DNA from: Raillietiella orientalis
Taxonomy: Eukaryota
NCBI GenBank assembly: GCA_036172245.1
Contig: JAYWIR010000046.1
Coordinates: 620,001-684,000 of the forward strand
DNA length: 64,000 nucleotides
Direction: 5' to 3'
In this document: positions 8,601-51,214 of the stretch, piece by piece
Numbering within the stretch: the stretch's first letter is position 1
Layout of the letters: every line of letters begins with the position of its first letter
Program-made: the position numbers and the translations under genes
Notes under the pieces: generated by a model
Database searches by the model: none
Told to the model about the DNA's origin: nothing
Seen by the model: only the letters and a program-made list of their open reading frames with translations

Positions 8601-11600
8601 CGACTTGTCTTTTGATCGTTAACGGAACCAAGGTGGTGGGAGCTCAACGATTCATGCGACAGGCAAGAAATTGGGAAGCGCAAAGTGAAGGAACGGAAGT
8701 TCCGTACTCACGGTGCAAGAACACGGTAAGAAAGGTAAAATCTTTCGTTAGCAGATGCTGCTTTCTTGCTTCTGCCTGAGAACTATTCTTTCTACCCAGT
8801 CTTTAGCGAAACAAACGACTTGATCTCTGCTCCCGAATCTTCCAAAAGCAAGGTTGAGGTGTGCGGTCAGTGGAATTCGTCGAAAGGAAGCTTTCGGCTG
8901 CAGCTTGTTTAAAGTGCTACGATCTGCAATTGCAGGGATAGCCACTTCAGGTTCTTGCATTTCCTTCTTCTCAGTTGTGCTCAAGTGATTGCAAGAGAAT
9001 CCGACAACGTTTGAGAGCGAAAAAGGTTGTTGGTAACACTGACTTTCTTCCAGAGAAGCGGCTTTCATCGATTTATCTTCCTTTCTTACATCCCTGAGGA
9101 AAATAAAAGGAAAACCGGTTCTGACTTTCGGTCTCAGTCTAGGGTAGAACCGAAGAGTGCAGCTATTCTTCGGTTCTACAGAAGTTCTTGCAGTTAACCA
9201 ACTGCAACTCTATCTTCATTCTTCCAGAGACAAGAAAGTTTCCCGGATGCCTTTTTTTTCCTTTTAGAAAACACTAACCGGAACTTCATAGTTTTTTCCT
9301 CACCCTCTTTACTTGTTCTAGGTCCTCTTCTCATCTTGCGGGAGTCGGATGAAATCCTTTTTCCACTATTCAGCTCTTCCTTCGTTCATCCTCTTCGCTG
9401 CTGCTGACACGTAGTCCACACTGCAGAAGGCTTCCGGTGTCTGACTTGCCTCTTATTTCCCCTGATGGTCTCCTGGGCAGAGTAGCCCACATCTCGATCA
9501 AATGGGAGTTGTGAGAATCCCCTGACCACGGCCAGGCACTCAAGGCGTTTTGCACTTCGAGGAGAGGGGAGATGTCTAGGGAACATCCTTCTTTCCTTCC
9601 TCCCTTGCTCCTTTCTCCTTTTCCTCAATCCGATATGATGCTGTTTGGCTTGCAGGTCCACAGATGATGAACATCTCTGCCAGTTACGCGGTTCGGTCGC
9701 AATGAAGACAGAAGAAAGCAATCGCAGGAGCTCTCTGAGCTCAAGAAAGATCAGTTGCGAGGACGCTGGTTCCAAACAACTTGTGGATGGCACAGATCAT
9801 TGAAACTGAAAGCAACAACGTCAGCAACACTTTCCGTGGATGACTGATGGAGATACTACAAGAGGCCTTCGAGTGAAGAGGAACGGAAACGCAGAGAGTC
9901 CTTTCAATAGCAGAAAGCTGAGGGTGAGTGTTTCGACCTCCTTGGCTCGAACAGCATCAGCACCGCGGACTCTCTCTCCCGGAGATTTCGCTCGAGTCCA
10001 CGTAGGGCCTTTTTTTTTCCTGTTTTCATTTTATTGGCTTCCGGCACTCCAGGAAGTCGAGTGGCGCGCGGTTGGAAAGGCGAATAGTTTCCGCGTCTTT
10101 CGCATGCCTCCAGCCAGCATTCTCGCTGCGGGCGCGCACGCATCCCGAGAACGGGGTCCAAGACGGCACGGGTCACGGCACTCGCAATCCTCTCTTCCGC
10201 CTCCTTCTCTGCGTGACCTTCCAACTCTCTCTGATCTCATCTGTGACGGCCTCTTTCGGAAAGCTGCGCTGCTCTGGAGGGGATGCCTCGAACGATCCGT
10301 CACGGTGGAAAGCGAGCGTCAAAATGCAGTAGGAGTCCGGCCCTACCCCACAGTGTTCCTACTCCATCGTGCTGATCGCCTGCTTGTGATTTATTGTGAT
10401 CCGCAGCCATCGGAGAGCCCTTCTTCCTCCTTTTCCCATCCCCACCCCCCATCCTTAAAAGGAGCATTTCAGGAATTCGCTGGCCACTCGCTTGTTTGCT
10501 GGCATGTTTTTGCAGTCGTTTCCGGGATATCCCTCTCCCAACTTCCTGAACCTCCCAAGCGACTTAGCCTCGAGGCGCCACTGTTTCTCGCTAGCGTTCC
10601 ACATCGATCTCTACTGGTTTTCTTGCAGGGCACGGAGGGAGGAAAGCTAAGCGGAGGACGATGGTCGGTGAGGATTCCTTACCTTGATACCAAGGGAGAC
10701 AGCTCCGAGATGCTGCCAAGGGTGGCTGTGTACCTTTTAGAGGCCTGGGGGTCTTTGTTCGTCTCGTCCAGTAGGGAAAGAATGTTCTTCGTCGACTCTT
10801 GGTCAGCGCTGCGCAGGAGTTGCGGGTAAATCCTGTTCAGGAGGTTGGATTTCATCTCTGAAAGAGAATGGAGAAATCGGCTCATCTAGAGGAAGGGCAG
10901 CTTTTCCTACGCCTCATTCACCATGCCACTCGTCCCCATGGCAACGGGAGTCCGGTCCTGTTGGCTAGAGGATGGGACTCCCGCATGCTTCCCGTTCTCG
11001 CGAGCGTTGCGAAAGAGATTGGGCTGTCGGGTTGGGAATGCGCGGGAATCACCTCGTGAGGGAGAAGGAGAACGCAAGGGTGAAGGGAGTTTCCAGTTTC
11101 ATCCACAGGAAGCATCCTCCCGTGTTTGCTCCATCCGAAGGGGCCTGCCCATCAGATGAAGGTCGTCTAATCCGAGCCGAGGGAACTGATGACCCGAAAG
11201 AGCTCTGGTAGAGGCTGAGAGAATGCACCCTATCGGGACGCTCCCGGTCCCTCACATGCCTTCCGAAGGTATCACGAGCCTAAGGCGGAGGGCGACTTCT
11301 TTCGCGACGTATCATCCAAGTGAGGAGGAGCCAGCTCCGAGACGAGTTTCTCGAGGAGGAGAAGGGGAGCTCGCGGAAGAACGGCTCTTCCTGGGGGCTT
11401 TTCGGTTGTCCCCAGCCACGCAGATCGACACGCTGCGCCTTCTCGCCACCGCCCCGCCGGCAAGCACCACAGCCTCTCCTTGGCTGCCATTGGGCGCTCC
11501 TCTGCCCCTGGTGTCGACCTCGCAAGCTCCAAATCTGGGCCTCCAGACTCTTCCAGAGACGTCTCCCAGAGAGTGGCTGAGAAGACAAACACCGCATCTG

Positions 11601-14600
11601 AGCTCCTCCTGTTTCAAGGCTCAATCTCCGTCTCTGCACGGCTGCTGCTGCTTCTCTTCCCTCAGAGTCCTAGTCAGAAGCCGCATGGCTGCCGTCTCCG
11701 CCCCTGGCACCAAGCATCGCGGGTTCGAATCTCCCCCGGTGAAGGATCGACGTCGAGAACGGGAGGGTGAGTTATGGGTTTTGAGTTTCCCCTGCGAGAT
11801 GGCGCTAGTTGGGCTATGGGCTTCAGTCTCAGCAGTGGTGGAAGTCGGAAACCGGGTGCCGCCGTCGACTGGCCGGGATTGGAAGCTGACTCTCCGGTGG
11901 CCTCCCAGAAATCGAGGAACCCTTCGAAGTTCCTCTCCGGTTGTGTAACAATGGAACCGTTCCATCGCGTACTATGGAGCTGGTTGATGCCTCCCTCTCG
12001 AGGGTTGCCTCTGCAGAGTGTGAAAAAGCTTGCTGTTCCCTTCGGGGAGCGCCCTTCAGAGAAAATGGGAAGTGTCCCTTCGGGGTTGGGTTCCCTTCAG
12101 AGAAGAAATGAGGAGTACCCTCCCTTCAAGGCTCCCTAAGGAAGAAGTTTCCTTCGGGGTTCCCTCCCAAGCGTAAGAGGAACGGACTCCTTCTGCCGGA
12201 GCCCTTCGTGGATTCATAGGGTGGTATCCCTCCGGGGTGCCCTATGACAGAATGAAAAAAAAAAAAAACACGAAAGAGGTGGGCAAAAGACGAGGAGGAA
12301 TCCCCAGCAACATCCGTAGGCCGCTGTGGGAAGAGCTTCTCTATGTAGGCTTGCGCAAGAAGGGGCGCTGCGTTTCGGGGCAGCTGTCCCGGTTCGGCCC
12401 TGCACGTTGTCGCTGCCTGCAGTCCTCTTCGAATCTCTTGAGGCGCGCTTGGGAGGGAAGGCGTCTTGAGCGCCGTTTCTGGACGCGGCAGCTGGCGGCG
12501 TCACTGCCTGTGGTTTCCGGGCCGGCGGCTCCGGGAAGCGGGCGTCGGAGGGATCCCGGCAGTTCGAAAGGCGAGTTGCGCGATCCCAGTGCCAGATGCT
12601 GAGCTTGGATGTCCTTCCGCCGGAGCTGGAAGGAGGAGGTCACCCTTTTGACCATATGATCCGTGCTCGATCATCCTCCCTGGTCACCGCTCCGACTTGC
12701 CCACCGGAGCACCCGCTTCCTCTTTTCCTGCTGCTCCTCGAACTCTCGCGTGAGCGCGTGAGGGGGGTTCCCGGAGGCATGCGCAGTCCTTAAGAGACTT
12801 TGCACGTGATCTCTGACCAGAAACGTGTTCTCACAGGGAGCACACCAGCTACAAAGAAAAAAAAAAAAAAACAAGGGAGGAAGGAGACCCCCTCCCGCAA
12901 GAAGAAAAGGTTTGAAGCCCCCAAGGTAAACATGCTGCGTTTGATCGCTCCTCCTGCTTTGAGTGATGATGCTCCTCGGGCATCCTGACTGCAAAAATAA
13001 GGATGTTGTGGCGGCTGGTTGCAGTGGCAGTAGGGCTGAGACGAGAGAGAACGGTCAGCCACGGAAATGAAGGCGAGATCACAGGACACGCATCCTCTGA
13101 CGCTGAGCAAACATCACCGCTGTCAATGCCCTGGGACAAAGAGAAAACGCACCGCCCTTGGTGGACGGCATTTTGCTCCTTGATCCCGGGCACGGGCCAC
13201 GCTGCAAAATAGGTCCTGCCGCTGCTGGTGTGCATACACGGAGGGAGCCACTTTAAACCGGCTTGCAGGTTCCTCTTTCCTTGCCCTGTGCTGTTTTCCA
13301 TGGTGAGGTCACGCGGGCCTGGTTTTCGAGAAGCTTGTCCCATGCGACGAGCCCCTGAAGCTCCCTGACTCCTGGGGAGCGAGCAACCACCGCCCAGAAA
13401 GGCAAGGTGATCCCGGAACCGGGTGAAGACCTGCTGGGCAGCGGGATGAAGTGCATCAAAGAGTGGCGAGTGGAGGAAGGGGAAAACACGCGCTCCTCCT
13501 GTGCTTCGGTGTTTGCTAGCCATTAGAAAAGAGGGGCTTTTCAGACTGGGCTGCAACTCCACGAGGGAGGTTGAAGCCCCCACGGGGAACTTCCGGCGCG
13601 CTTTCGGGGCGCGGTGGAATGTGGCAGAGAGCAGCTGTCAATCATTTAAATCGCTGAAGGAGCAGAGAAGTGGAAAAAAAAAAAAAAAAAACAGAAGCAG
13701 TCCACTGAAAAGAAGGGGTTACTTCTCGAAAAGGCGCTACTTGCTGTTCCTGACTCCGTGACCTTCGCTCGAAGCAAAGAAACCGAAGATGGTGATTCGC
13801 GCTCGGTCACGGCGAGCTCGGAAGGTGCGAAGTGTTCCGGAAAGGGTAGGCAGCCGCCTGGGGTGAATCCCACTTCACGAATGTGGCGAGGGGACACTCG
13901 TTGTCATGGTAGGGGGCTCGGTCGCGCGTACAGGAACGCGGGCAGCCTCAATGGGCATTCTGACGCTAAGGAATGTCAACCGTGACTTCCCTGTTAGACT
14001 TCCTCCTGGTAAGTCAGGGAAATGCCCCGAGATAGCGCTGAGGGTGTCTGCGCCGAAATTCAGTTGGGGGGCTACCTGAAAGCTTCGATTCCGAAACCCA
14101 GGGCCCTTGCGGCAGTGAAGGGGACAGTCAACGCCAGGTTCAGGCCAGCAGCATTCGTGTGAGCATCCACTGAAGGGATTGCGTCTCCAGGAGCCAAGAG
14201 CTCTGGCCCAGAGGTGCACAAGTCGTTCGTTTCTGGCACCGGGATGCACCTGGATTTCCCTCTTCCAGGAAGCTCGTTATCCGGCGTGGGGTCGAAGGCT
14301 CGAGCCTCTTTTTTCCTCGCATCCTCAGGGCAAGAGAACCCTCTCCGTCTGTGGACCAGATACGCGCTTGATCACCCCCGATGGCGAGCCGGTGCTGATG
14401 TGCCTGCAAGTCGCTCCCGAGGTCTCTCGCCTGAGTGAGTGACCTCGCGCGGAGAGAGCATGGAAACCCAGGACGGGCGGGTTCTGCGCGTGCTATTCTC
14501 CGTCGCCAGGAAACGATGAGGGCGAGCTTACAACCAAGGGGGAGGCGCAGACGGGTCCTGAGCGTACCAGCCTGAGTATCCTGGGAGGTATGCAGTCACG

Positions 14601-14646
14601 TGACGCCTATGGAGGGGTGGTGAGAATGTCCTCGAGGCGGAGAGGA

Positions 14647-14990
14647 TCACTGGCGCGGAGGGGAATCGAGAATGCCCAAGTAGCCGGAACACCACGGCCG
14701 GAGAGGTGAAGGCGCTGCCGATGCGGTCGCCAAACCGGGTCGGGTCGCGACAGACCTAGTGGCTCCGGGAAGGGCGAAACCACCTCGAGAAGATTCACAG
14801 CCCTCCCTGAGGAGCACCTCGGGGAACCCCTTGCTCTCTGAGGAGGGAAATGCGATTATGCGGAGTTCAACTCGGCCTCTCCACCCCTGGAGTTCCTCGT
14901 GACCTCGTGTCAGGCTCCTTCGACGAGCGCCAAAAGCCGGGAAAGAGGGAACTGCCGTAAGGAGGCTCCCCGGGTTCCCGGGGGTTGCTG
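14647..14990 (-). CDS. Candidate exon 6 / terminal coding exon of the KHDRBS-like gene
   Basis: Long pyrimidine tract ending ctctcttgccag at 14991. A phase-1 join to exon 5 stays open (AATPGNPGS...SSRGGFALPGATRS...PPRQ*) to TGA at 14649-14647. No conserved motif; an alternative acceptor near 14807 is possible. Confidence 0.35.
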
Positions 14991-15580
14991 CTGGCAAGAG
15001 AGGACCCCAGGGCAGAAGCAGAAGGATCAGAGAGAGGTGAGCGCGTGACATCAGGCAGGCGACTGCCGCTGGGGGCGACCCCGACCCGCCTTCTGTCCGA
15101 GCCAATGGCCCGGTGCTTCGAAATGCGCCGACTCTCGGAGTCTCGGGCACAGCTTCCAGCCAGGGGTCTTCCCTACTACTAGGGGATGGTCTCTTCCCTG
15201 CGCAGGTAGCCCTCCTCTCTTCCCGACCACGCCCAGGGCATAGCTCACTCCGGCAAGATGAGCTCCCATGGGTCTCCCTCCCAAAGGAGGCGCCACGGCT
15301 TCGGGGAGATCAACCCCGTGAGATGTCCCCCTTGTGAGAGGGAGCCCTAGCTCCGGGGGGAAGGGACAGGACTCTTCTGGGTCCTATCTTTGCAGGAACA
15401 AAAGGCAAAGGTCACGCGCGTGAGGCACAAATGGCCCCGGAGCATGCCACAGGGGGCAGGTCGACAGGTGCGGCTGCAAGCGCTCCTGGGCGGCGTGCCC
15501 CTTTTCACGGCCGTCCTCCGATCTTCCTCCCTCGCCACTCCGCGGCTCCGGAAACGCTTCCGGAGGGGAGGCACCCTCAC

Positions 15581-15740
15581 CTAAAAGCTGACTCCTTGTC
15601 CTCGGCGGCTCCGCGCCGGCGGCTCCATAGCAGCTCCTGAAGGACTTGCGGGGGGAGACGGGGTCGTCGGAGCCCAGCTTGAGGTTGCTCAGCATCCTCA
15701 TCTCCCGCATCTGCTCCAGCCTGATGCCGTCATTGTAATC
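15581..15740 (-). CDS. KHDRBS: KHDRBS-like exon 5 (160 nt, QUA2 and linker)
   Basis: Acceptor ctgcttccccag|GAT, donor TTAG|gtgagg (phase 1); encodes [53 protein letters not shown], continuing the LVP-DxxDxIxxEQ motif. Confidence 0.9.
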
Positions 15741-18700
15741 CTGGGGAAGCAGAGGCGACGCCCTGTCGGGTCGAGGACAGGCATGAGCCCCGCGAGCGAG
15801 GGCCATCTGGGGCGCGGGGCGCTGAGGTCTGCTCGGGGAACCACCCACATCTCTGCGCGATCTCAGGCGTCTCCGTGCCCTCCGGTGGCAAGTCAGGGCG
15901 GCTGCGGGCAGGAGAACCCAGGCAGCCCTCACTCGCCCCGCGGAAGGCAGGTGAATTGCTCCCTCTCCTAGCCCAGAGGAGCGCGGAGGCAGGTTCTTGT
16001 TTTTCCCCTCTACCTCCTGAGGTGTTACCCCCTGGAAGAAAGGGCCATATCCCAACCCCTTTTGAGGGAAGCCCTCTCCCTTGCGCTCCTGAAAATGCCC
16101 TCCCTCTTCCCTGCGTGGACTGCTCTTTCGTTCGGGGGCTAGTAAATGGCACCCCACAAAGTTTTCTTCCCTCTTCTTTCCCCCATTCTGGAAGGGCTGA
16201 ATTCGACGCAGGCGGGCATCTGAGCCCCAAGGTCCCCGTGGGACTGGACTCCCGGGACTCTACACAGGATCGCCACCGGTCTCTTTATGTAGATCGGCCG
16301 GCAGCGCTGCCCCTCCTGCGGACCAGCGGGGGTCCGAACCCAGGGTGTGCCCTTTCGCCGGCGGAGGACTGAGCCAGCTGCTCTCGAGATGGGAGCTGGA
16401 GGGGAGAGAGGGGAGACGCCTGACAGCCAATTGCTCGCCGTAGGGCATCGCAGCACTGATCTCGGAGGCCACGGGCGACGTACTTCCCCGAGGGCCCGGC
16501 GTGGACCGGAGACAATACGGAGCCCTTTCCACCCGGGGCAACGACAGGCCGGAAGGCCGGGTCCCTCTCAGCGGATGGTGGCAGTGACTCCGCGCGCGAC
16601 GGTTTTGCGGTGGTGGAGGCGGGGGGAGATCCTCTTAGGCCGAGGGCGGCCTTCAGGGGGGCAGTGCCCTTTCGACGGCCGCAGCTGCCGCGGAGCTGCG
16701 AGAAGGAAGGGGACCACAGTCGGGGGCGGCCCGAAGATCCAGGGATGCCGGAGGGAGAGTTGCGCGCGCGCAAAGGAGAAGGTGGTCCTTGCGAGGATCG
16801 GATACGGACCCCGAACCGCCCGGGACCATGCGATGGGGATTCTCCCGACTCTTCTCGAAAAGGCGCATGGTCCAGAAGCGTCCTCAGGGACACTAGAGGG
16901 GAGAGCGGCGCGCTGGCAACTCCCTCTCCTGTCGCGCTCTTCGTTCCCATCTGTCCGGGCCTCTTGAAAGCGGTTGACGGTGTACGGGATCGAGAGCGGG
17001 GATGCCGCTCTCTCGGGAGGATCGGCCCTTCCTGGAGGACCTGAAATTTCAGGAAGAAGAGCGAGCGCGGACGAGGAGACTAAAACAGAATCTACGACTC
17101 CTGCACGGAGAATAACGGCTTCTGGGACTGCACCTCAGGGCACGAGGCACTCATGTCGTGCTCTTCGCCCCCGATCTTTCCATGCTGGTCCTGTTGCTCC
17201 TGGATGGCGCCGACGAACGAATCGAAATCCCAGCTCGCAGTACCGCCCGCGCTCCCTCCCCTGCGGGTACTCTGGCAGCCCGGCGGCCTGCCCCGGCGGA
17301 CTCGCTGGCACTCCGGGACCATCGAAGCTCCAGCGAAGGGTGGGCTGCGCTCGGGAGACACCCAGAGAATTCGCAAGGATCTCGGACGTCGGCTGGAGCC
17401 CGACTTCCGGACATCCGGGCGGTTGTTTTTGGCGCGAGGAATTTCCGCCCTCGGCGAATCCCTCTGCTGGTCTGGAGTCTCCTGAGCCCAGGACCTCGCA
17501 TCCTGAGTCACTGCAGACTCAAGAAGCCTCCTAGACAGAGACGCTCTGACGCCACTCCGCCTTCCGGGACGGCGCTCAGGAAACATCAGGAAACGATCCT
17601 CTTTGCCAAAGGAGGCCAGTGTCCACAAGAGCAGCAAAGGAAAACAATCAGGTTGCTCTTTCCCTCCCCTCCCTTCCTTTTTCATCCGCGTGCTCACGTA
17701 GAATTGAACCACTTTCCAGAGCCGCACCTGCAAAGACGGGTGGCGAGGGATCGGTGGTTCCAGACGAACCCAGAGGCCGCCGTGTGCCCTCTGGACTTTT
17801 CTCACCTTCAGGGTATCCTTCTGCGGTGCCACCGCCGATGCAGTGAGTTAGCAGCTGCGCCTCCCGCAGTGGATGACCACCCTAGGGAAGCGCAAAACTC
17901 CTTGCCTCCTGCGGGCCGATCGGGCTCAGTCTCTTGCTCTCGGGAAAGATATGCCACCACCCTGGCCACCAGGAAAACATGATCCACCCACACCCAGAGA
18001 CTCGGATGTCTCGGCGACCCAATCGACTTTCCTTGCATTCTTCTTTTCCCTCCAGATGGGCAGCCTGGATGGCGCTGAGCAAACTCTCTTCCTCCCTTCT
18101 TGCTCCCCTTTTTCCTCCTTTTCTTCTCTTCCTTCCCTCCTTCTGTTCCTCCTCATGAACCTCCTTTCCCCTCTTCCATCTCGGACGAGAGGAGCGGTTT
18201 GGTTCCCTGTTCCCCCGGAACTCCCCTCTGCGTCAGAGTTCCCACTTCTCCCTGCGCCGGCAGCGAGCCTGAGGCAGCTCCCTTCCATGGTCTCTCGAAG
18301 CCTCAGTCTCCTTCTTCTCGCTCTCCTTTCGCTCCCTACCGAACGTGCTGATGATCCTGGGTGCACAGCATTCCGGTCAGATGAGATCTCTGCGTTCAGG
18401 GATATCATCTGGCGGAAGAGGCTTCATTCGCCCGTTTGAGCATCGGTCAACCCGTCTCTCAGAAGGGAGACTCCCCTGTCCTTGTCCCTGCCCCCATGGG
18501 CCGTCTCCTTCTTCCGTATCTTGGAACATCTCCCCGAGGTCATGTACTGACGGACAGCCTCGCTGCCCACGGGGGCCACTCTGCTCAGAAGAATAGGCGC
18601 CAACCCTTCCTTTCGCCCCTCTCCTTGTGGAGCATAGTCAGCCGCTGCACGGCGCAGCCCTCTCAACTCTTCGCGCCCTGCTCCTGTCAGCTGCCCTGCG

Positions 18701-21700
18701 CTCACCCCTTAGGAAGAGCTGACCCCAGATCCAGCTGTGAACGGCAGGGACTGTCATCTGCGACCCCCACTGAGGTCCCCTCCGCCGCCTCCGCATTGGC
18801 AGGAGGTTTCGGAGTGATCCAACCTGAGCTCGCGGGCGCACCCTGTGGTAAGATGGCGGGGACTCTCACCGGGACCAGGTATCTGCGGATTTCGGACAGG
18901 GCGAGGGCGATGCGGGCGTGTGCCTCCGCTGGAGGGGCGTGGGCGCTGACTTCCACGTGGAGCTCCTCGTACAGGTGACCGTACCTGGGGTCGCGCGAAG
19001 ACCGGAGCTCTTCTTCCTGGGGACACACACAGAAGATGCCTCTCAGGAGGTCTGCCTCTCGCTTCGCCTCCGTTCCTCCTGGAGACGGGCAGCGCCCAGG
19101 GGGGAGGAGGGATTAGATCGGCACACCAGGTGGCGCGATCCCCTCTCGCCCTCTTTAGCGGCGGGTGGCCCGGAAACGCCTCATCCAGGGCGCTCAGGTC
19201 CCTGAAGCGTGTTTGTGGCTTCGGCGGAGACCAGGGCCCCGTGGGGTCACTAGGCTCACTTACGCTCGCTTCCGGGAGCCTCAGGAGCGGAAGTTGATTC
19301 CTGTCCGTTTCGCCTTGAGGGTCCGTGGCAGCAGAGGACAGGCTTCCCGGGAAGCACGGGGCAACCCAAGGGGCAGATCCGAAGGGAGGGTCTCCGGGCT
19401 TACCTTCTGCTTGTCCCTCATGGAGCCCCGCCCCAGAATGGCGATCCTCGTCACGGTGTCCTCCTGCAGCCTCTTCAGCGAGTTCCCGTTCGGGCCGAGC
19501 AGCTTTCCAACGAAGTTGAACTGCAAGGGAGGCAGGGAGGCGTTGGCGGGAGGGCGAGGAAGACCAGACCGCCGCCTCCGCGTTCTTCTCCCCCCTGCAC
19601 CTGTCAGCAGGAGGGGGGAAGGGGTCCCGGGTCTTCCGCCCGAGCGGAGGCAAGGGACCACGCGAGGACGAGGGCCGTGGCCGACGCCCCGCCCGGCTGC
19701 AGAGCCCCTCCAGGGAGGGTGCTCCCGTCTTCACGCCGGTCGGGCTCCCTCACCTCACCTTGGGGTGATCCTTGACTGGGACGAGCACTCGACAGGACAC
19801 TCGGATGTGCTTGTCCTTCGCCACGTCCACGAACTTCCGGTCCTCCTTGCTAAGCGGTTTCCCCCCGTTCTGGATCCTCTCGATCTCTGGAAGCAGAAGA
19901 GAGTATGGTAAGAGCAAGCATGGGAAGCATGAAGGAGCTCCTGGCGGGTCACTTGAGCCAGTGACTGCACTGCTCCTCCCCCAAGAACACTAGTAAACGA
20001 TCACGTCTTCATAACAGTATTCTCGTTCCCGTGCTTTTTTAGGAGAGCCAGGGAAAAGGGGAAAGAAGGGCGAAGAGTCGTGGACTGAAAGGGTCTTCAC
20101 CCATCCTCAGTACTCTTCTGCCACTGAGGACATGGAGCGAGCTACGTGAGGAAAGCAGAGGAAGGGAAGAGGAGGAGGAGGAAGGGAAGAGGAGGAGGAA
20201 GGGAAGAGGAGGAGGAGGAAGGGAAGAGGAGGAGGAAGGGAGGAGGAGGAGGAAGGGAGGAGGAGGAGGAAGGGAGGAGGAGGAGGAAGGGAGGAGGAGG
20301 AGGAAGGGAGGAGGAGGAGGAAGGGAGGAGGAGGAGGAAGGGAGGAGGAGGAGGAAGGGAGGAGGAGGAGGAGGAAGGGAGGAGGAGGAGGAAGGGAGGA
20401 GTCCCTTCCTTCCTCATCCATACTCAAGCAGGATGGGTCACGTGCGTCTTTCGTGAGCCGTCCCGCGTGAGGCACTCCCCGACTGAGCCCGTGCGCGCTG
20501 CAAATGGACTCTGCTGGAGCTCTGGTGCTCTAGTGCTCCGAGCTCGTGTTCCCGACCACGGCAAGGTGCTGAGGCCGTGTCAATGTCACTCCCCTGGGGG
20601 AGTTCCGCTTCGTGACCCTGCACGATCGCATTCTGACCTGGGACAGGGAGACTGGAGATAACCTTCCCCTTCTCCCTATCCCCGGAGCGGGTGGAGGCAC
20701 ACAGTGCGAGTGAGACTCAAATCCGAGACCATGATGCGCAGGTTGAGAAGAGCAGAACGTCCAAGTGTTTGCTCAGAGCTGGTCAAGGCAGCCTAGAGGG
20801 AGGGCAGAGCTCTCTGCATTTTTCCACGGCTCCCTTCGATCCCTAACGTTCTCGGAGCGCTTGTCCTATGGTGCCCAACTCCAGAGCAGGGCCACCGAGC
20901 CTGTCATTAGGCGATCGCCCCTTCCGCCGCGTCCTCCTTACGCGGAAGGTCGGATGCCGAGACCACGAGAGATAAAACTCCAAATGGGCGTTTCCCGATG
21001 TGGGTTCGTGGAGTGCACGGTCCTACCCCTGGCTATCGAGACCAGGGCGGCCACTCTACGGCTGATCATGTTGCGCCGTTCTCTCTGGTTCGAGGGCCCT
21101 GGGTGTGCTCACGGTGACTTTCCGCTCTCCCGTTCCTCCGTTCGGCAGTCATCCCAGAGAGGGCGCTGCCCACTCGGCTGCCGCGCTCGCCCGTGAATGT
21201 TCCAGGACATTCCTCTTCGATCGCGTCGTCCCCGCATCCGCGACTAAAAGCGAGCAAAGTTGCATCATCGCGTTCTGAAGATTTTATGAGGCCTCGTTTT
21301 CCTCTCCCGTTGCTCCGCGACACGCACTCTGTGCTAGGAAGCTCGCGGTCGCCGGGGCCAATCCGAGGAGGAAAAATTCGATTAAGACGGTACGTCCCCA
21401 TTTCGCAATTTATCGGGGTTCGTTCTCCTGTCAGTCGAACTTCGTGGCACGGGAGGCTGCTGGCGAAGCGTCTGCGGAGGGACAGCGGGAGCAGACCCAC
21501 GCTCCTCGCTATGCTGGGCGTGCTGCGGAAGATGCCAGATCCGAGACTGGGCAGTCGTGCCCCTACCGGCGGGGTTCTATGCTCGATAGAAATCCGGGAT
21601 CTCCTCGGGATCTTTCCAGCGTGGCCAACCCCGTGCTGGAAGCACCTGTCTTCGAGAGATTTCGCTTTCCTCCTTCGGGAGCAGGCATAAGTCTCGACCT

Positions 21701-24700
21701 TCATGCAGACGAGACATGGCGTGATTTCCCCCTCCCCGTCCCGCAAGTCGATCGCCAAAGGGAAGGTGAGAATCACGCCGGGTTCTCTTCGGAAGGAAGT
21801 CAGCCATTTTCTTCCTTCCGAACTCGCTTCGAGCGCCCTTCCAGGCATCCCCAAGATCGGGATCATTGTCCGTCCTGGCCACTCACAGACGGAACCGACA
21901 AAGGCGGCCTGCTAAGGGTCTGGGCTGGCCCAAGTCTCCGGTTTCGCGTCCTCACGAAAGCGTCGAGGTGCAGACTGCTCGCTCGGAGGCGCCTTCCCGC
22001 ACGGACTTCATCTCTCTGCGGGTGCCCATTCTCGCCAAAGAGGGGGCGTCGCGGACGTCTTTCAGCACCTTTCAGCACAGATAAGTAGTCGGACCCTGTG
22101 GGCGTGCCCTTCTTCCTCCCATGCAGCCCTCGGAGGGGAAGGTGGTGTGTAGCGCCTTGAGGGCGAACTCAGGGATCGCAGCAACTTGCGCCCGTGTCAT
22201 TGTGGCTTCAGGTGTCGCGTTGCGATCCCGGCGCGGTGCGAAAACGACAAGGGACGCTCTGGAGTACGATTCTCACGTGACCCGACTTTTTTGACAGCTT
22301 CTTTTGCGTGTCTTCGCTTTCTTTGTCCACTTTTTTTTGCCTGAACAAAACGAGGTCTAAGAGCTTCTCGATGCTTCCAGTTCTACGTATCCAACGCTTC
22401 ACTGTGAAACCAACCTTCATTTCTATTCTTCCACCGCTGAGTAAAAATGCTACTGCCTTTAATAGCAGATCTTTAATCACTTTTCTTCTTTTAATGTTAA
22501 TGTTATACAAAGTGCAGCGGTAAAGACTACTATAGTTTCTCCAGATGCAAAGAGTATATGAAAGGGAAGTTGGAGCAGTTGGCAGAGCGCGAGAATTTTC
22601 AGACTCTAGAGAAAAAGCGTGACCCTGGAATCAGGGATGCTCCGCTGATCCTCTGGTGGAGACTCTTTCTTGTGGCGCACCGGCCACCAAGAGTGCATTG
22701 TGCTTCAGACCGACCTGCAAGCGAGAAGAAATGAGGGGGGGAGGCAGGGTCGATGGGTGAGGTTCCGGACCTCCCCCTACACCGGTTTGGAATAGGAAGA
22801 CCCTCTTGGGAACCGGGGCTGAAGATCGACCAAAGACGAGAAGAAGGGAAAGAATTCGAGTAGGGAGGCCATGTGAAAAAAGGGAAGGGAGGAGGGAGGT
22901 CGACAAGAGAGAAGGCAGAGGAGTCCCAGGAGCAGCCGCAGTCACTCTCCTTGCTGCCGCCCAGGAACTCAGGGATGAAGGGAGCAGTATCGGAAGGTGG
23001 GAAGATTCAGGTGTTTCCTCCACGGCTTGGGAGGAGTCGGTATCCTCCTCGACAACCCCGTGCAGGGAAGAAGTCTAACCCGACGCCCGCAGGCGGCTGG
23101 TCCCCAGCGAGCTCTCCCTGCCGACCTCGGCAATCGCGATCTCCCACGGCATCCGACCAATGGCGAAATCATACCAGCTCTTCCCTATAAAGGGGGCCGT
23201 TGACCACAGGTCTGGATTCAGGCGCGCTCCAGACTCGTACCCCGAGCGGCCACGACCTCCTCTCCGCGAGGTAAGGGAGGGCGTGGCCTCTTCCTCCCCG
23301 GAAAGCGGTCACAGAATCGCGCGGTAGAGATCAGACCGGAGGCAGCTTCAGGTCGCAGACTCTGAGCTCGCCACAGCAAACATGGGACGCCCTTGCGCTT
23401 GGAAGGTGACGGCGCCAACAGAAGAGCAAACGGTAATCTCGAAGCCTCCTGGATTCGAGGGAGCGGCTGCCGTAGCGAAGAAGGGCATCGCTTCTTCCTC
23501 TCAGAAGTGACCCCCGTGGGCAGCGAGGCTGTCCGTCAGTACATGACCTCGGGGAGATGTTCCAAGATACGGAAGAAGGAGACGGCCCATGGGGGCAGGG
23601 ACAAGGACAGGGGAGTCTCCCTTCTGAGAGACGGGTTGACCGATGCTCAAACGGGCGAATGAAGCCTCTTCCGCCAGATGATATCCCTGAACGCAGAGAT
23701 CTCATCTGACCGGAATGCTGTGCACCCAGGATCATCAGCACGTTCGGTAGGGAGCGAAAGGAGAGCGAGAAGAAGGAGACTGAGGCTTCGAGAGACCATG
23801 GAAGGGAGCTGCCTCAGGCTCGCTGCCGGCGCAGGGAGAAGTGGGAACTCTGACGCAGAGGGGAGTTCCGGGGGAACAGGGAACCAAACCGCTCCTCTCG
23901 TCCGAGATGGAAGAGGGGAAAGGAGGTTCATGAGGAGGAACAGAAGGAGGGAAGGAAGAGAAGAAAAGGAGGAAAAAGGGGAGCAAGAAGGGAGGAAGAG
24001 AGTTTGCTCAGCGCCATCCAGGCTGCCCATCTGGAGGGAAAAGAAGAATGCAAGGAAAGTCGATTGGGTCGCCGAGACATCCGAGTCTCTGGGTGTGGGT
24101 GGAACACGTTGCTCTGGATGTTTCTTGTTTGAATTGCAGTGGGACGAAAATCCTCAAAGGGATATCCCAGTGAGGGGCGAAGATGGGGAGGCCGATGATT
24201 AGCTTCCACCGGATGATGGCGCCTCCTAGTTGTCGAAATCCATTCCGTTTTACGGATGCTGGGAGACATCCCGGAATTTCCTGAACACTGTGGAGGCGTG
24301 TTCTCATATGAGGATATTTCTGTCTCTTGTTTCTCGTGTTTAAAGACAGCTCTGACGCGTCCCATCCGCCGATTCCAATGACTGCTTTTTTTCCCTTCAG
24401 TTGAAAGAAAAGACAGAAGCGTGCTAGTCGCATGCTCAAGGCATCATTTGCATCAGTGGACCCAGAAAGACTTTTGTTTGACTTGCCTCACGCAAATCCT
24501 GCACACATCAGGGAACTCTGAAGCGTCCCAAGCTGCGCACCTGTTGCGGAGATGGACCCGTAACCGAAATGTATCTTTATGCGTGGTCCTTATCCACGCG
24601 GTATTTCCAGAAAATGGAAGCTGTGACCATTTCCAGAGCACTCCAGACATCGAAGTGCCTCCAGTCTTTCAGTGTGAGCAACGATGTGGAATGCTCTTTC

Positions 24701-39700: not shown

Positions 39701-42700
39701 TGAAAAAATTTCACGAATTAGAGTCGCGAATTTTCGGCACTCGGATTTGCAGTGCGTAAAGCCACTCGGCGTGTTATCACTTGAAACTTGAGTTTCACTT
39801 TTTCTTGCTGAGTGTTCATGTTCATCTCTGTTTCTCTGAAGTCCGCGTGCAGTGTTTGTAGAAGCCTGAATTTTTGTGACGGAAGGGATACATTTTCGAA
39901 ACAGTATCGTGGAAATCTTGATCTCCACGTTACTGTTTCGACTTCTCACCCCTTCAGTTTCACTGCCTTGCTTCCTAGGCAGGCATTTTTGAGCCTATTT
40001 TCGTTGCGAAGGTTCCACCTTAACGTATTGCAAGCACCGAAGATGTGTTGCTTCCATGACTCTGTTCATTAAGATGAAGGACAGTTTTATGAAACACGAG
40101 CACACAAACCATTTCCAGAGGAAATGCATTGTGTGCTCTCCATTTTGTATGGAAGAGCACTGTAAAATGGAAGCTGCCATAAGTTAACAAGAGTGGACAA
40201 CAGTCCTGCTTCACTAATCCGGTTAAACTGCAAGAATCCTGAATTGTGGCTGCTGATAAATGGATCCCTCCTCTTAGTACGCGAGGTGACATACAAGATT
40301 GAACAGGTTCCAGCAGTTTTTTTGATGGGTCATACGAGACTACGAGCTGTATAAACCAAACACGGAAGCTCGAAGTGTGTTCATGGTAGGCATGAACTGT
40401 CCATAACTAATTGACCGTCACTAGCTTATCACTGCTAGCTTAGAAATACTGAGAATTTATGAACCACTTGAAAGTTCCTCAGGTTTACTGTTTTACGGTT
40501 GTGAAAACATGACATGTTTCCTTGTTAAGGCAACCCAGAAGTTCTAATTCGATTGCAAATTCGAAATCATGGATAATGAGAAAGAAACGAAACTTATCAA
40601 TCATGGAAAGGCGCAAACTTTACGAGGCGGAAAGAGTAAGATAGGGAATTCGGAACGTAACCTTAAGAACTTAATTCACGATGCAACACACAAGAAAACT
40701 GAGATAAGATTGAGTTTATTCCTTTATTCCTTTTCAAGGTCTTGAAATTCGCTTGAAGCTGCAAAAATTGTTCCCATATCTAAATCTAATATGTCTTTCG
40801 TACAAACTTCAGCGAGGATTGTACACATGGCATTTGGGTCAAGGATTGGGTGACTGCTTGTGTTTCTTATCACTTATTTAGTTGGAAACATTATTATCAG
40901 GTAACATGAAACAACTAAATGCAGCTGTTCACAGAATTTCTTGAATTATTCGCACAATTATTTAGGAAGGAGTTGAAGGTGGTGGGAGGGTTTTCGTAAT
41001 TTCACATACGTGTTATGTAAAAAGTGTGGAACACTTCTAGAATGTTGTATCAGATAATCTCATTAGCACTGTTTTTTTTTTTTAAATTGTAATAATTGAA
41101 CCTAAATGATGAGACTTCAAATGAACAAAAAATAGATGAAATGAGGGGAGAACAGAAATATTGCGGACTTCATGCATCGGAAGGATTTCGAAATATCAAA
41201 CTGATTGCTCAAGTAATTTTCTGTTTTAGAGATAGCTCTTGTGCAAGCTTCGTGCACTATCAGTCCTCTGCATCAGTCCATCCCTCACTTCGTGCCTGTT
41301 TCGTGCATAGATTCATTTGTGCGAGCAAATTTTTCCCATTCAGCTTCGCTTGCAAAGGATATATTTTGCACCGGCTCAGTAAATGGCCAAATGTATTTCC
41401 AATGTGTGTGATATCAAAGATTTAAAGGATAAGGTAGCTGAAGGTGTTTCTTATAAGTTTTTTCCTCAACAAAGCAGGTGAATTCTTAGGAACGAGTGGT
41501 TAGCGGAAAAGTTTTGAAAGATGTACTTCAGTCAATTAGTACACAGTTTAGATAGTTCAAGTTGTACTTCGATCCATTTTCGGTCTCCCACAGAATCTCA
41601 TGCATCGATGCATTACAAGATTGACATGCATAATGCATATCTATTCATCCAATGTTCACATCAAGTGTACATTCGATGTACGTGCTACAAATGTATGTGT
41701 GCACACGTGTTTTTGACAATACTCCGTTAAGCTAATTTTTCGAACATTTGATTTGACGCACGCTGTCTTTGCAATATAAGGAGAGAGTTCATTTTTTCAT
41801 GATGCCTTCGTCTCTGCCCAAAAAGGTCTTTGCATCCAGATGACATGTTTACTCAGCATAAAATGCTTCTGATGTTTCTGGCACTAATGAGTTTTTGTAA
41901 GAGGCTCAGAGCTGAGGTCGGATTAACGAGAACTAGACGCCACACATTAGCAAACCGTCGTTCCAGGCACCACATGGAATTCAGGAGGAACAAAATACGG
42001 ACAAGAGGTGAGGTACATGAAATTTAGCACTGGTTTATGGTGGCGCTTGCACTCAGAGCACGGTTGCGTTTTCTCTCATCTCGGTTGTCAAGCATGATCA
42101 GAGACTTGCATAACGCCTCGCTAACATTCGTGCGCAAGAAAAGTCATCTTCACAAGCAAATGAAAAAGGGGAAGAAGGCACGGGTCAGAGCACCCTCTGG
42201 GTATGCAAAGCGATAGAAAGAAGTGGGAAGCTAGATCGGTCGCGAAAATCCCGTAACCGTAACGTCCGCTTCAAGGAAATCAGCCTTAGATGGACTGCGG
42301 TTGCGCTTGAAATTTCGTCTCCGTGAATCCCGAAGATTCCCACACATGTGATTGCTTTCCGTGATGCAAATGAAGTGAAACGAAAACGGGGAAATCCAAT
42401 CAGAATCGTTCATCCGGTCAGCTCTTACAGTCGGTCCACTCCAACAGCTCACGCCGGTTTCTCTTCACCTGTCCCTTTCATTAGGCGAAGTGCTTGAGAT
42501 TCTGGCCTTTTTTTCCCCTGTAATCAAGTCGCGCAAAGTTCGGCGAATCACAATCAAGTCAGCGGCTGCAGGTTCATGGGGTGCATGGAAAAGGCACGGT
42601 CGGTCAACGCGAATAGCAGGCGCGGCCAGATAAAGAAATCCAACTTGACTACTGCTGCTTGCTGCTCCGCTAACAAACTCGTTCCGAGGACGAAGAAAGT

Positions 42701-48700: not shown

Positions 48701-51214
48701 TTGCTTTACTGGTGCTCTCAGCTACCGCATTGTTTTCGTGAACTTCCAGGACCGTATTCGTTTTCCTTGCCCTTCAGATAGTACACTGGATCTCCAGCTA
48801 CACTCGACACGACATTGGCCTGTTAGCAAGGACATTCCCTGGTGAGATCTAATCGTAATTATTATCAGGGCCGAATGCCGCTACGAAGCACACAGTTTCT
48901 AAAAAACGCATGCCCGAAACCCCGACCGAATCCACAAATCCATCATTATTGAGACATGGTAACCACAGGGCTCCTTGCTTCGAAGGTGCCCCCAATTATC
49001 GCTTCCGAATGTGTCGTGATGAGCCGGCATGGCTGTTCATCCGTGTTCACATCAAAACGGAGATTTATTCGAAGAAACCGACAAACCGACGCGGTGCGCT
49101 AAACCGCAATACGGATGAAATTACTGCTTTTATGTAAATGCCACTGTACTGATGGCCGGAAGCATCCGTTCTTTTATCAGGAGGTGGCACATCTGCTTTA
49201 GGAAGTTTCAAAATCAGTTTGAAATCAGCTGAGCTCAACTGAAAGTGTGTATACTGATCTTTGGGGTGCGAATATCTCCACCTCTCGAAGAGTAGCAAGA
49301 GCACTAAACACGCAGCCACGTCAAAACGCGTAGTATTGGTCGAACTGGTGCACGCGGAAGGTGGTCTTTCTCTCGAAAGTGCGTTCTATGTCGAAGGGAT
49401 GTGGATGCTGAGAAAGGGATGGGAAAATTTCATGCAGGGAGGTGAGCGAGGAAGATAAGAGTTCTGGAACCTCTCAGAAGTGCAGATCGTGGTGGATTCT
49501 GCGCCGGTAAAAGAAAGAGAACGTGTTTATCTTCCGAATGAAATCTTAAAAGATAAAAAAATTTTTTTTTGTGTGTTCCTCTACTTTTACTCATCTCAAA
49601 CCAACATCCATTCCTTTTGAGTTTCGATCACAAATCCCTTCAGAATTGCGCGTTCCCTGGAGCCCCCTGGATTACCAGAGATCTCTCTAAACACGTTTCC
49701 TCCCTGCGGCAGCCTGTCCTTCCTCATGCGCATTGCGACACAGCACATCGTGTCGGAGCGGCGATGTTGGATTCATCAATCCTTCCCCCAAAGCCTACTC
49801 GTGCCAAAGGGTCGAGTGAAGCGGCGACCTCCAAGCAAATCCGCAACCGCGCGGGTGGTCAGGTTCCCCCTCGCATTGAATCGACATCTCTTTCCGGATG
49901 AAAACGAAGCCTCATGCTCTTACAAATGGACTCTTACGGTCTCCCTGCCCGCAATCGTCCTTGTGAGTTTCGGGTGTTGCACTGTTTGGTCTATTCGAGG
50001 GGTGAACGTGCGGCACATGGGCTTTTCCGAAGAGCTCCACACTTCAGTAACCCCTGTTTTTCCAAGGAGATGTTTCTGTTTGCTGGACTGTCTGTCATTC
50101 GCGATTCGCTTCCTGAAAGAAAGATGAAACCGCTCAGCCTGCATCCAGCAGATTCACATGAAACTCCAAGCGCTGCTGAGAAAAGCAACTCTCTGGGCAG
50201 AAAGCATCCGCTGAAGGCATCCTCATTATGGGCGAGCTGCTGTCCTTTTAGAGAACCGAAATTCCAAGAACCTTGCCCTATTCTTGCTCTCTGATTTTAC
50301 TATGGAATGTAACAAATAGGCACGCGCTGACGTAGTAGACGAGAAGAGGTGAAAGACAGAGTCATGTTACGAGGATGACTTTCCCGTCTCAGGGCATAGC
50401 ACTCCCAAGCTGAATATCGTGCACTGTTCGTTTGAAGAGTTCTATTTCCACCGTGAGAATCCCCCTGGAAACGGAGACGCTCGTTTTAGGGAGCCTCGTT
50501 CGCATGTGAAATCGTGGGCTGATGGAGCCCTTAATCTACTGTTGTTTCCAGATGAAGAACCTCTCGCTCTGTTAATTTATTGCCGATGAGGATTACAGGG
50601 ACGTGCCTGCGAAAGTAGATGGGACAATTAGATTCACTCTGAGGATTTAAGGATGGCTGGAAACAGCGAAACTTGTTGAAAGGAGGGAAGGGGAGCAGCA
50701 AGAATCAATTTCGACCTCCCATAGGGGGAGTGAAATTTCCAGAACGAAGCTCCCAAAGTCAAACAGTTTTATGGACGAGTGCATGTTGAGCGTCCCAACA
50801 GAACGTGCCAATTATAAGCTTTTCGGGAAGTGCGATGAACAGGCAGAGCAGATCAAGGACGGGATAGACGAAAGATCTGGATGGCTGAGTGTTCCCGATT
50901 GGTATTTTCGAGTGGATGGCCGGTATTCTAAAGAATGAAACCAGGGCACGTTTTCTAATCTGCTCATTCGTTTCACTGTTGGTTATCGAAGAAAAGAAGA
51001 TTCCGCGTGCACTCTTTACTCTGCCGCTTTCTTTTGCGAAGAGCTTCAACGGCACTAATAGCGCAAGGAGCAAAAGCACGGTACCTTGACTGAGTAGCCT
51101 CTGAGCGTTGTCAAAGTTGCCCAAGGTGTTGAGCACGTATTTTTCTGTCAGCAGCTCCCTCACATAATCGGCATATTTGCGCATGAAAGCATGGGAGTCG
51201 ACGTCCTCAATCAT
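15581..51214 (-). CDS. KHDRBS: KH domain-containing, RNA-binding, signal transduction-associated (STAR family; Sam68/SLM/qkr-like) protein; spliced CDS join(51214-51085,19886-19759,19520-19404,19016-18870,15740-15581,...), 3' end unresolved
   Basis: Five exons splice in frame with GT-AG ends to give QUA1 (YVRELLTEK...AQRLLSQE), a KH domain ([33 protein letters not shown]...[17 protein letters not shown]...[13 protein letters not shown]) and QUA2 ([22 protein letters not shown]). This is colinear with the Sam68/KHDRBS STAR domain as I recall it. The paralog number cannot be assigned. Confidence 0.93.
17983..18575 (+). repeat. Inverted repeat arm A (593 bp), in intron 4
   Basis: Reverse complement of 23511-24103. 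Paired coordinates sum to 42086 throughout (no indels), and ORF translations are identical in both arms (18100..18351+ vs 23735..23986-). Confidence 0.97.
18870..19016 (-). CDS. KHDRBS: KHDRBS-like exon 4 (147 nt, KH C-terminal part)
   Basis: Acceptor tgtccccag|GAA, donor CCG|gtgaga; encodes [49 protein letters not shown]. Confidence 0.95.
19404..19520 (-). CDS. KHDRBS: KHDRBS-like exon 3 (117 nt, KH GxxG loop)
   Basis: Acceptor cctcccttgcag|TTC, donor AAG|gtaagc; encodes [39 protein letters not shown]. Confidence 0.96.
19759..19886 (-). CDS. KHDRBS: KHDRBS-like exon 2 (128 nt)
   Basis: Acceptor tcttctgcttccag|AG, donor AAG|gtgagg; encodes (E)[42 protein letters not shown]. This frame is not shown in the ORF track. 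Confidence 0.93.
20157..20401 (+). repeat. Purine-only minisatellite, ~17-bp unit AAGGG(AGG)4
   Basis: 245 consecutive A/G bases; the period is visible directly and as a 17-aa period in spurious ORF 20146..20661. Confidence 0.97.
23511..24103 (-). repeat. Inverted repeat arm B (593 bp), in intron 1
   Basis: Reverse complement of 17983-18575; no mismatches in the segments compared by eye. Confidence 0.97.
26627..30032 (+). repeat. Diverged ~100-bp direct repeat pair (about 26627-26733 and 29932-30032)
   Basis: gtctgatcggagagatg..gacctggact..ccagggacaaag..ctctccactgtgctcgaacaagtattcagggtgacccgagagaagtgt vs gtccgatcggtgagatg..gacctggact..ccaggagacaaag..ctctccatgtgctcgagcaagcattcagaatgacccaagagaggtgt. 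Confidence 0.85.
26650..27350 (-). mobile_element. Decayed non-LTR retrotransposon (CR1/L2-like) ORF2 C-terminal fragment
   Basis: Minus-strand fragments in the expected order: ENNLTLNA (cf. NxLxLN), [16 protein letters not shown] (cf. KxLGVxxDxxLxW), CYRTL..IRPSL..LPHQ (cf. LYxTLVRPxLEY..WxPH). Many stops. Confidence 0.4.
36900..37400 (-). mobile_element. Decayed hAT-like (SPIN/GTF2IRD2-type) transposase C-terminal fragment
   Basis: Stop-interrupted frame containing ILFIENPFS, followed by CKR/KGF...KDSGRSRL, resembling the hAT C-terminal CExxFS..KxxxRSRL motif. Confidence 0.33.
44370..46153 (+). repeat. Diverged direct-repeat modules A (44370-44470, 45845-45931, partial 46133-46153) and B (44502-44595, 45683-45778)
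   Basis: Shared strings gtggtccgagg..catcgaccaagaatccctaagcatttgag.gatcaca.taatggt.aaa.tgcatgac (A) and tgcgcac.cattaacgaaatctg..gttcgca....cgtgtcttt.agtt.cgt (B). Confidence 0.85.
51085..51214 (-). CDS. KHDRBS: KHDRBS-like exon 1 (start codon, QUA1 region)
   Basis: ATG in GCCGCCATGA context; encodes [43 protein letters not shown] plus 1 nt, matching the STAR QUA1 pattern YLxELLxEK...AxRLLxxE. Donor CAAG|GTACCG is phase 1 and completes GAG (E) with exon 2. Confidence 0.88.

Follow-up and report, generated by a model that had tools for sequence, protein, structure and literature searches.

Perfect 593-bp inverted repeat arms around exons 2–4 of a KHDRBS-like gene in Raillietiella orientalis: a candidate locus for circular RNA

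The window analysed here, a stretch of 64,000 nucleotides taken as a whole, contains an inverted repeat whose arms enclose three exons of a gene for an RNA-binding protein. With a little more than even confidence we explain it as an inverted duplication, specific to this locus, in which some 0.6 kb of intron DNA was copied within a KHDRBS-like gene, any RNA output being a by-product of a recent structural mutation and not an evolved regulator. Judged by predicted folding, canonical splice sites and the lack of a competing repeat, the arm layout is structurally able to loop out exons 2–4, and the locus is a plausible candidate for an exon 2-3-4 circular RNA.

The host gene

By sequence similarity, the gene carrying the arms is KHDRBS (Sam68/SLM/T-STAR)-like; KH/STAR matches to KHDRBS3 and Pfam agree with its earlier placement in the STAR family. 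The model comprises five exons on the minus strand, and exons 2 to 5 all have AG/GT borders. The coding part of exon 1 (51085..51214; ATG at 51214-51212) holds 43 codons plus 1 nt and is followed by a donor GT at 51084. In BLASTP it aligns with residues 41–68 of one insect homologue (P0001, E 2e-4) and 49–75 of another (P0007, E 7e-5), and the homologue residues it matches directly precede those matched by exon 2. Exon 2 (19759..19886; 128 nt), the first 2 nt of which finish the codon begun in exon 1, corresponds to residues 37–71 of human KHDRBS3 (E 1.3e-3) and is also matched to insect homologues by tblastn. The KH domain core is encoded by exon 3 (19404..19520; 117 nt, 39 codons), equivalent to KHDRBS3 residues 72–110 (E 4.8e-16); its scores against PF22675 (40.6 bits, cut-off 30) and KH_1 (22.6 bits, cut-off 21.5) identify a type I KH domain of the STAR kind. 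Exon 4 (18870..19016; 147 nt, 49 codons) supplies the C-terminal part of the KH/STAR domain, matching KHDRBS3 residues 111–159 (E 2.4e-11) and insect KHDRBS2-like/GRP33-like proteins with 73–76% identity. Exon 5 (15581..15740; 160 nt) covers the region after the KH domain and has an hmmsearch match to profile positions 194–219.

Spliced together, the five exons stay open over 227 codons and are collinear with 25 homologues (best E 1.6e-72), showing 53–59% identity to insect proteins over about 180 residues. Among solved relatives, KHDRBS3 and KHDRBS1 match best, followed by GLD-1, Quaking and SF1. Exons 1, 2 and 4 encode extensions on both sides of the KH domain, the N-terminal one Qua1-like, in the same order as in the family; single exons gave no Pfam Qua1 match. 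Members of the KHDRBS group carry a C-terminal RG, proline-rich and tyrosine-rich tail. A regular-expression search for a C-terminal motif conserved among the insect homologues gave no match, and the gene is mapped as far as exon 5. Intron 1 spans 31.2 kb and intron 4 spans 3.1 kb, and exons 2–4 cluster within 1.1 kb.

No identical or near-identical protein turned up in the collection searched, and a homologue search with exon 1 gave 3 candidates, none of them significant. Among at least 598 metagenome stretches matching a pattern, one related locus was confirmed (L001; 1593 bp, 71% identical, 41% GC), in which exons 3 and 4 are fused and which has no DNA in common with the window outside exon 4.

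The inverted repeat and its origin

A repeat search of the window returned an inverted pair at 17969-18580 and 23506-24117 (612 nt, 99% complementary, 4925 nt spacing), all six mismatches of which lie at its two edges. The preliminary description had reported a perfect inverted repeat of 593 bp, and comparison base by base confirmed it: 17983-18575 is the reverse complement of 23511-24103 without interruption (593/593). The borders are sharp and the whole structure measures 6.1 kb, with about 4.9 kb between the arms. Neither arm is assigned a strand. Arm A (perfect core 17983..18575) lies 294 intronic nt beyond the exon 4 donor in transcript order, close to the ~295 nt first estimated, and is 65% purine in the pre-mRNA. 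Arm B (perfect core 23511..24103) precedes the exon 2 acceptor by 3624 nt and follows exon 1 at a distance of about 27 kb. Locating exon 5 (15740-15581) and exon 1 (51214-51085) places the arms in introns 4 and 1, respectively, as previously proposed. The enclosed exons 2–4 were likewise correctly named (128 + 117 + 147 = 392 nt, each with an AG acceptor and a GT donor), as were the letters of the putative back-splice junction, where exon 4 ends in ...CTGGTCCCG and exon 2 starts with AGATCGAG....

The arms have exactly two copies by blastn (word size 11), a count that applies to the 64-kb window. They form its sole sizeable repeat, a self-megablast finding no other of at least 100 bp in the 64 kb. 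One 28-mer of the arm occurs twice in the window versus 0 times in 100 shuffles, and has 0 matches in the metagenome collection.

Homology between the two sides does not stop at the perfect core. Gapped blastn stretches the pair to 17969-18616 / 24117-23475, revealing a degenerate continuation on the inner side of arm A (18576..18616, no strand assigned; partner 23475-23510) with about 70% identity including gaps. Its anchored-extension score of 10 was matched by 2 of 2909 random pairs drawn from 10-23 kb. The outer side gave a non-significant score of 4 (P ~0.06), and unanchored local alignment of the arm flanks did no better than shuffles. When 12-21 kb was compared with 21-30 kb by sensitive blastn, to look for a larger, older palindrome around the arms, the known pair and low-complexity GA/CT sequence were the only matches.

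The degenerate inner-border homology is easier to reconcile with a biological duplication that later diverged or underwent conversion than with an error of the assembler, and we regard as unlikely an artefact in which assembly or polishing inserted or duplicated one arm by mistake, arm B being the probable one. Such an error would yield exact identity over 593 bp, and the GC-rich domain of the region does fade near the outer border of arm B. Against this, the arms are separated by 4.9 kb of gene sequence that is unique and in the correct order, so that two separate switches would be needed, and the window contains 0 N letters. Known fold-back assembly artefacts are palindromes without a spacer, in contrast to the 4.9-kb spacer seen here.

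Quite unlikely, too, is an origin from a mobile (non-autonomous) or dispersed repeat family, members of which would have inserted twice, recently and in opposite orientations. The discrete unit of about 600 bp with sharp borders is what such a family would produce; however, neither a third copy nor a diverged relative was detected in the 64 kb at word size 11, and the arm 28-mer is absent from the metagenome collection. Terminal inverted repeats, target-site duplications and an A-tail are lacking: the unit's ends match as an inverted repeat at 11 of 40 positions, and no direct repeats of at least 7 bp flank either arm or the whole 6.1 kb. Judged within the 64-kb window, the arms do not qualify as a terminal-inverted-repeat transposon (MULE/Pack-MULE, foldback, DIRS-like) or as two copies of a MITE or SINE, and the window shows no transposase or reverse-transcriptase domain. 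None of 24 ORFs taken from the arms, the spacer and their surroundings matched Pfam; among 61 further ORFs none reached the cut-off, DUF7866 scoring 17.1 bits against a required 27. Transposon or virus-like content was accordingly rejected, no Pfam family exceeding its cut-off in the 24 and 61 ORFs.

Other features of the region can be listed briefly. A tandem array of 13.4 copies of a 17-nt GA-rich unit (20169..20401, no strand assigned) lies 283 nt upstream of exon 2 within intron 1; read in the pre-mRNA it is a polypyrimidine tract, and it is 68–75% alike to a GA-rich tract inside arm B. An AT-rich island occupies 22280-22580 inside the loop, where Sam68-type U(U/A)AA motifs number 7, versus 5.8 ± 2.4 in 1000 shuffles; a cluster of such motifs was rejected, the count lying within the shuffle range. 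Searches of the window returned 0 Rfam matches and, by tRNA scan, 0 tRNA genes.

Predicted fate of the transcript

The anatomy known to accompany repeat-driven circular RNAs is present. Reverse-complementary sequences occur in both flanking introns, the splice sites are canonical (AG before 19886, GT after 18870), and pairing across the introns is not out-competed by pairing within one intron: 42 kb of the gene (10-52 kb) contain three competing inverted pairs only, of 32–39 nt at 72–81%. Cofolding of the arms gave −1374 kcal/mol with 593 of 593 pairs intermolecular, compared with −183 and −203 kcal/mol for the arms folded alone. The duplex of about 600 bp envisaged earlier is therefore predicted at its full length of 593 bp.

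Under the favoured explanation, an inverted duplication of intron DNA, the arm copies would have arisen very recently or been homogenised with each other by gene conversion, and their positions in introns 4 and 1 would have left the clustered exons 2–4 between them. During transcription arm B would be made first and arm A about 4.9 kb later, after which the arms could zip into a 593-bp perfect duplex that sets the exon 4 donor beside the exon 2 acceptor. Through the established mechanism of flanking complementarity, this duplex would favour back-splicing into a 392-nt exon 2-3-4 circle; it would also favour a linear exon 1–5 product with a stop at codon 47, and both would arise at the expense of full-length mRNA. 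Pairing would take place only if intron 1 were still unspliced when arm A is transcribed. Against such an outcome, arm B is 3.6 kb from the acceptor and intron 1 may be gone before arm A is made; editing, dicing or retention may also be the fate of so long and perfect a duplex.

All structural prerequisites that the preliminary description named for a circular RNA or exon loop-out module stand, whereas its word "module" is weakened on two counts, the "exact" bracketing and the perfect identity. Bracketing of exactly the KH exons is a weak sign of design, because any local duplication across the 1.1-kb exon cluster would enclose the same exons 2–4, and the complete identity of the arms (593/593) gives no sign of age or conservation. 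It appears improbable that selection maintains the repeat as an autoregulatory device committing a set fraction of transcripts to the 392-nt circle, possibly with the STAR protein aiding the arms. The anatomy fits throughout (arms, duplex, few competitors, distances), perfect identity beside diverged flanks could reflect long-term homogenisation, and published work offers precedents in Sam68 at the inverted Alus of SMN (PMC6954450), circKHDRBS3 in human brain (PMC8355340) and the Mbl-dependent circle (PMC4617980). On the other hand, the one related locus confirmed among the metagenome matches listed (L001, 1.6 kb, exons 3 and 4 fused) is uninformative on repeat conservation, U(U/A)AA motifs in the loop are not enriched, and the bracketing of exons 2–4 is expected from gene geometry.

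It is highly unlikely that the main consequence is double-stranded RNA (hyper-edited, or diced to yield small RNAs in the manner of hpRNA loci) or arm recombination that flips exons 2–4 into null alleles: the predicted 593-bp perfect duplex, identical arms that we infer to be long enough for homologous recombination, and precedents in PMC10317233 (Drosophila hpRNA loci) and PMC8938519 (ADARs at circRNA-flanking introns) speak for it, but the arms match no protein family and nothing else in the window and so have no apparent small-RNA target, intron-derived siRNAs would leave the mature mRNA untouched, and the exons stand in functional orientation in the present assembly.

If both arms are real, the locus would offer an exceptionally clean case, provided by nature, for testing how repeats drive exon circularisation: a single perfect non-transposon pair, no competitors, and three coding exons that cannot be lost without breaking the reading frame, in a gene whose own protein family is tied to circular RNA biogenesis. 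The locus could show both the cost of a young intronic structural mutation and the recruitment of such accidents into regulation. Were the repeat an artefact or devoid of any RNA effect, the locus would be a small intronic duplication and nothing further. We speculate, giving the idea only a very slim chance, that it is a naturally occurring equivalent of the engineered circRNA vectors, in which a perfect 0.6-kb repeat maintained by conversion circularises the KH exons at a rate set by the gene's own protein, whose Sam68 family is reported to promote circularisation at inverted repeats, placing an invertebrate splicing regulator under self-limiting feedback.

Relation to known systems

The KH/STAR domain is common to the window gene, to KHDRBS1/2/3 (Sam68, SLM1, T-STAR) and to insect KHDRBS2-like/GRP33-like proteins, and the exon borders of the window gene coincide with residues 71/72 and 110/111 of KHDRBS3. 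Like muscleblind, the gene encodes a splicing regulator, and its own exons are possibly circularised at the expense of the mRNA. Formation of circMbl depends on Mbl binding sites in the flanking introns and is not known to involve a long repeat. According to PMC4617980 Mbl protein is needed for the Mbl circle, whereas the window locus has a long repeat and no U(U/A)AA enrichment.

Published work describes hpRNA loci of Drosophila as producing endo-siRNAs (PMC10317233) and ADARs as acting at complementary matches in circRNA-flanking introns (PMC8938519). An hpRNA locus is recognised by 21–22 nt reads and by arms that derive from a target gene and are complementary to it; the arms here showed no similarity to the rest of the 64-kb window or to Pfam families.

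Mouse Sry and circRNA vectors resemble the window locus in their long, essentially perfect flanking inverted repeats and in the proposed stem that joins donor and acceptor, as set out in PMC4201285. The same paper reports inverted repeats of more than 15 kb flanking the circularising exon of Sry, and states for vectors that perfect repeats of about 800 nt suffice and that 30–40 nt can be enough. Sry differs in its arms of more than 15 kb, its single exon and its demonstrated circle; the window locus has 0.6-kb arms enclosing three coding exons of a multi-exon gene, with one arm 3.6 kb from its splice site and a circle that is predicted.

The Alu-flanked human circRNAs of ZKSCAN1, HIPK3 and SMN, together with Drosophila laccase2, share with the window locus reverse-complementary intronic sequences on either side of the exons that are, or here would be, back-spliced. 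Their repeats are diverged copies of dispersed families, whereas the window pair is unique in the window, 100% identical and devoid of transposon features. At SMN a Sam68-family protein is implicated: according to PMC6954450, Sam68 binds near the inverted Alus and promotes circularisation.

Inverted repeat and host gene

The gene encodes a STAR family protein on the minus strand. Its exon 2 (19886–19759, 128 nt), exon 3 (19520–19404, 117 nt) and exon 4 (19016–18870, 147 nt), when searched individually, hit adjoining stretches of human KHDRBS3 (T-STAR): residues 37–71 (E 1.3e-3), 72–110 (E 4.8e-16) and 111–159 (E 2.4e-11), respectively. KHDRBS1 ranks next, with GLD-1, Quaking and SF1 lower, and exon 3 passes the Pfam cut-offs for both PF22675 and KH_1. 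Among full-length proteins, the nearest found were KHDRBS2-like/GRP33-like proteins of insects, with 73–76% identity over exon 4. Exon 1 (51214–51085, minus strand; ATG in a GCCGCC context, GT donor) aligns with the homologue residues directly before those matching exon 2, and exon 5 was located in this analysis at 15740–15581 of the same strand. A script-built five-exon model is open over 227 codons and collinear with 25 of the 25 homologues compared (best E 1.6e-72; 53–59% identity in the best long matches). Intron 1 is 31,198 nt long and intron 4 is 3129 nt.

The sole large inverted repeat of the window has arms at 17969–18580 and 23506–24117 (612 nt, 99% complementary, 4925 nt spacing). 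Base-by-base comparison reveals a perfect core, 593/593, between 17983–18575 (arm A) and the reverse complement of 23511–24103 (arm B); the 6 mismatches in 612 all fall at the two edges of the arms. Only two copies of the arm were found in the 64 kb by blastn (word size 11), self-megablast returned no further repeat of at least 100 bp in the window, and an arm 28-mer occurs twice there versus 0 in 100 shuffles. The copy number, the perfect core and the shuffles establish the repeat as real in this sequence, far beyond chance. In transcript order, arm B precedes the exon 2 acceptor by 3624 nt, within intron 1, and arm A follows the exon 4 donor by 294 nt, within intron 4. The anatomy put forward in the preliminary description thus holds: a 593-bp perfect inverted repeat in introns 4 and 1, one arm ~295 nt from the exon 4 donor, enclosing exons 2, 3 and 4 (128 + 117 + 147 = 392 nt), each with an AG acceptor and a GT donor.

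The window appears to contain a single gene, whose first intron spans 31 kb, and to encode no recognisable transposon protein. None of its 85 long stop-to-stop ORFs (1–64000) reached a Pfam domain cut-off, and it contains no Rfam matches or tRNAs. The 3′ part of the gene, from exon 2 onward, occupies a domain of 60% GC (10000–24100); GC is ~44% in intron 1 beyond arm B and at the left end of the window, and CpG observed/expected is ~0.8 throughout. This CpG ratio and the insect origin of the best protein hits suggest that the DNA comes from an invertebrate. Between exon 2 and arm B the GC-rich domain includes an AT-rich island of ~300 bp (22280–22580). At 20169–20401, ending 283 nt before exon 2 in the transcript, a 17-nt GA-rich unit is repeated in tandem (13.4 copies, 92% matches); in the pre-mRNA this array reads as a polypyrimidine tract of ~230 nt. 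It shares 68–75% similarity with the GA-rich tract within arm B, which makes its RNA partly complementary to that of arm A. Farther into intron 1 there is a small near-palindrome (39879–39958; 39-nt arms, 2-nt spacer, 74% complementary).

Predicted RNA pairing and its products

Co-folded as RNA, the arms are predicted to form a continuous duplex of 593/593 pairs at −1374 kcal/mol, versus −183 and −203 kcal/mol for the arms folded singly. Other inverted pairs in the 42 kb of the gene number only three, all trivial (32–39 nt), so that arm pairing has no competitor there. Pairing would set the exon 4 donor next to the exon 2 acceptor, and back-splicing of exons 2–4 would be the expected outcome. 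The arms could pair only if intron 1 has not yet been removed by the time RNA polymerase reaches arm A, ~1.3 kb past exon 2. The predicted circle of 392 nt, not a multiple of three, contains one ATG and a 112-codon frame across the junction, and the predicted linear exon 1–exon 5 product is frame-shifted with a stop at codon 47. Either product would lose the KH domain and so lower functional output.

The main fate of this duplex might be processing by ADAR or Dicer: complementary matches in the introns on either side of circRNAs are described as sites of ADAR action (PMC8938519), and hpRNA loci are treated in PMC10317233. At the DNA level, recombination between the identical arms might invert the exon-bearing segment 18576–23510 that they enclose.

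A selected module or gene geometry

The preliminary description interpreted the exons and arms as a candidate circRNA or exon loop-out module of a splicing regulator. Precedents make this idea biologically coherent: Sam68 is reported to promote SMN circularisation beside inverted Alus (PMC6954450), circKHDRBS3 is reported from human brain (PMC8355340), and Mbl protein is described as required for the Mbl circle (PMC4617980). However, the 593/593 identity of the arms gives no sign of conservation. Exons 2–4 lie within 1.1 kb between introns of 31 and 3 kb, and any local duplication across such a cluster would enclose them just as "exactly"; no design is needed to explain it. The one related metagenome locus among the matches listed, at 798–1257 of the 1.6-kb contig L001 from a distant organism, encodes a relative that is 71% identical over exon 4 and has the counterparts of exons 3 and 4 fused; not every family member therefore has an intron at this point. 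U(U/A)AA motifs are of the type bound by Sam68/T-STAR. On the transcript strand of the AT-rich island in the loop (22280–22580) they number 7 versus 5.8 ± 2.4 in shuffles, that is, they are not enriched. We therefore do not accept a selected module as it stands. The loop-out interpretation is partly supported, in its anatomy only: arms, splice sites and gene.

Origin of the repeat and comparison with known systems

Past the inner border homology runs on for ~40 nt at ~70% identity with gaps, an extension score matched by only 2 of 2909 random pairs in an anchored test; at the outer border the same test gave no significant extension (P ~0.06), and searches for an older, larger palindrome around the arms gave none. 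That a perfect core adjoins a diverged edge suggests either gene conversion between somewhat older arms or a duplication junction at low-complexity DNA that was already similar, as proposed by replication-based template-switch models (PMC2621351). Both origins are biological and count mildly against assembler error, and an assembly artefact is considered unlikely. If mutations are assumed to arise at ~3e-9 per site per generation, the absence of any difference across 593 bp would make the duplication, or the last conversion, younger than ~8e5 generations.

The repeat does not resemble a mobile element. Its unit lacks both terminal inverted repeats (11/40 positions) and an A-tail, no direct repeat of at least 7 bp flanks either arm or the whole 6.1 kb, and Pfam matches were obtained for 0 of 24 ORFs in the arms, spacer and vicinity, with the cut-off reached by 0 of another 61 ORFs in the window. 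Judged from the 64 kb, it is unlikely that the arms belong to a dispersed repeat family.

Most likely, then, the repeat is a local inverted duplication, young or homogenised by conversion, and it is predicted to be capable of causing exons 2–4 to be circularised or skipped. Back-splicing is an established consequence of complementarity flanking exons. The flanking repeats of mouse Sry are given as >15 kb, perfect repeats of ~800 nt as sufficient in a vector, and 30–40 nt of repeat as possibly enough (PMC4201285). Repeat-flanked exons are already known, and the KHDRBS-like locus described here would add an unusually clean new case.
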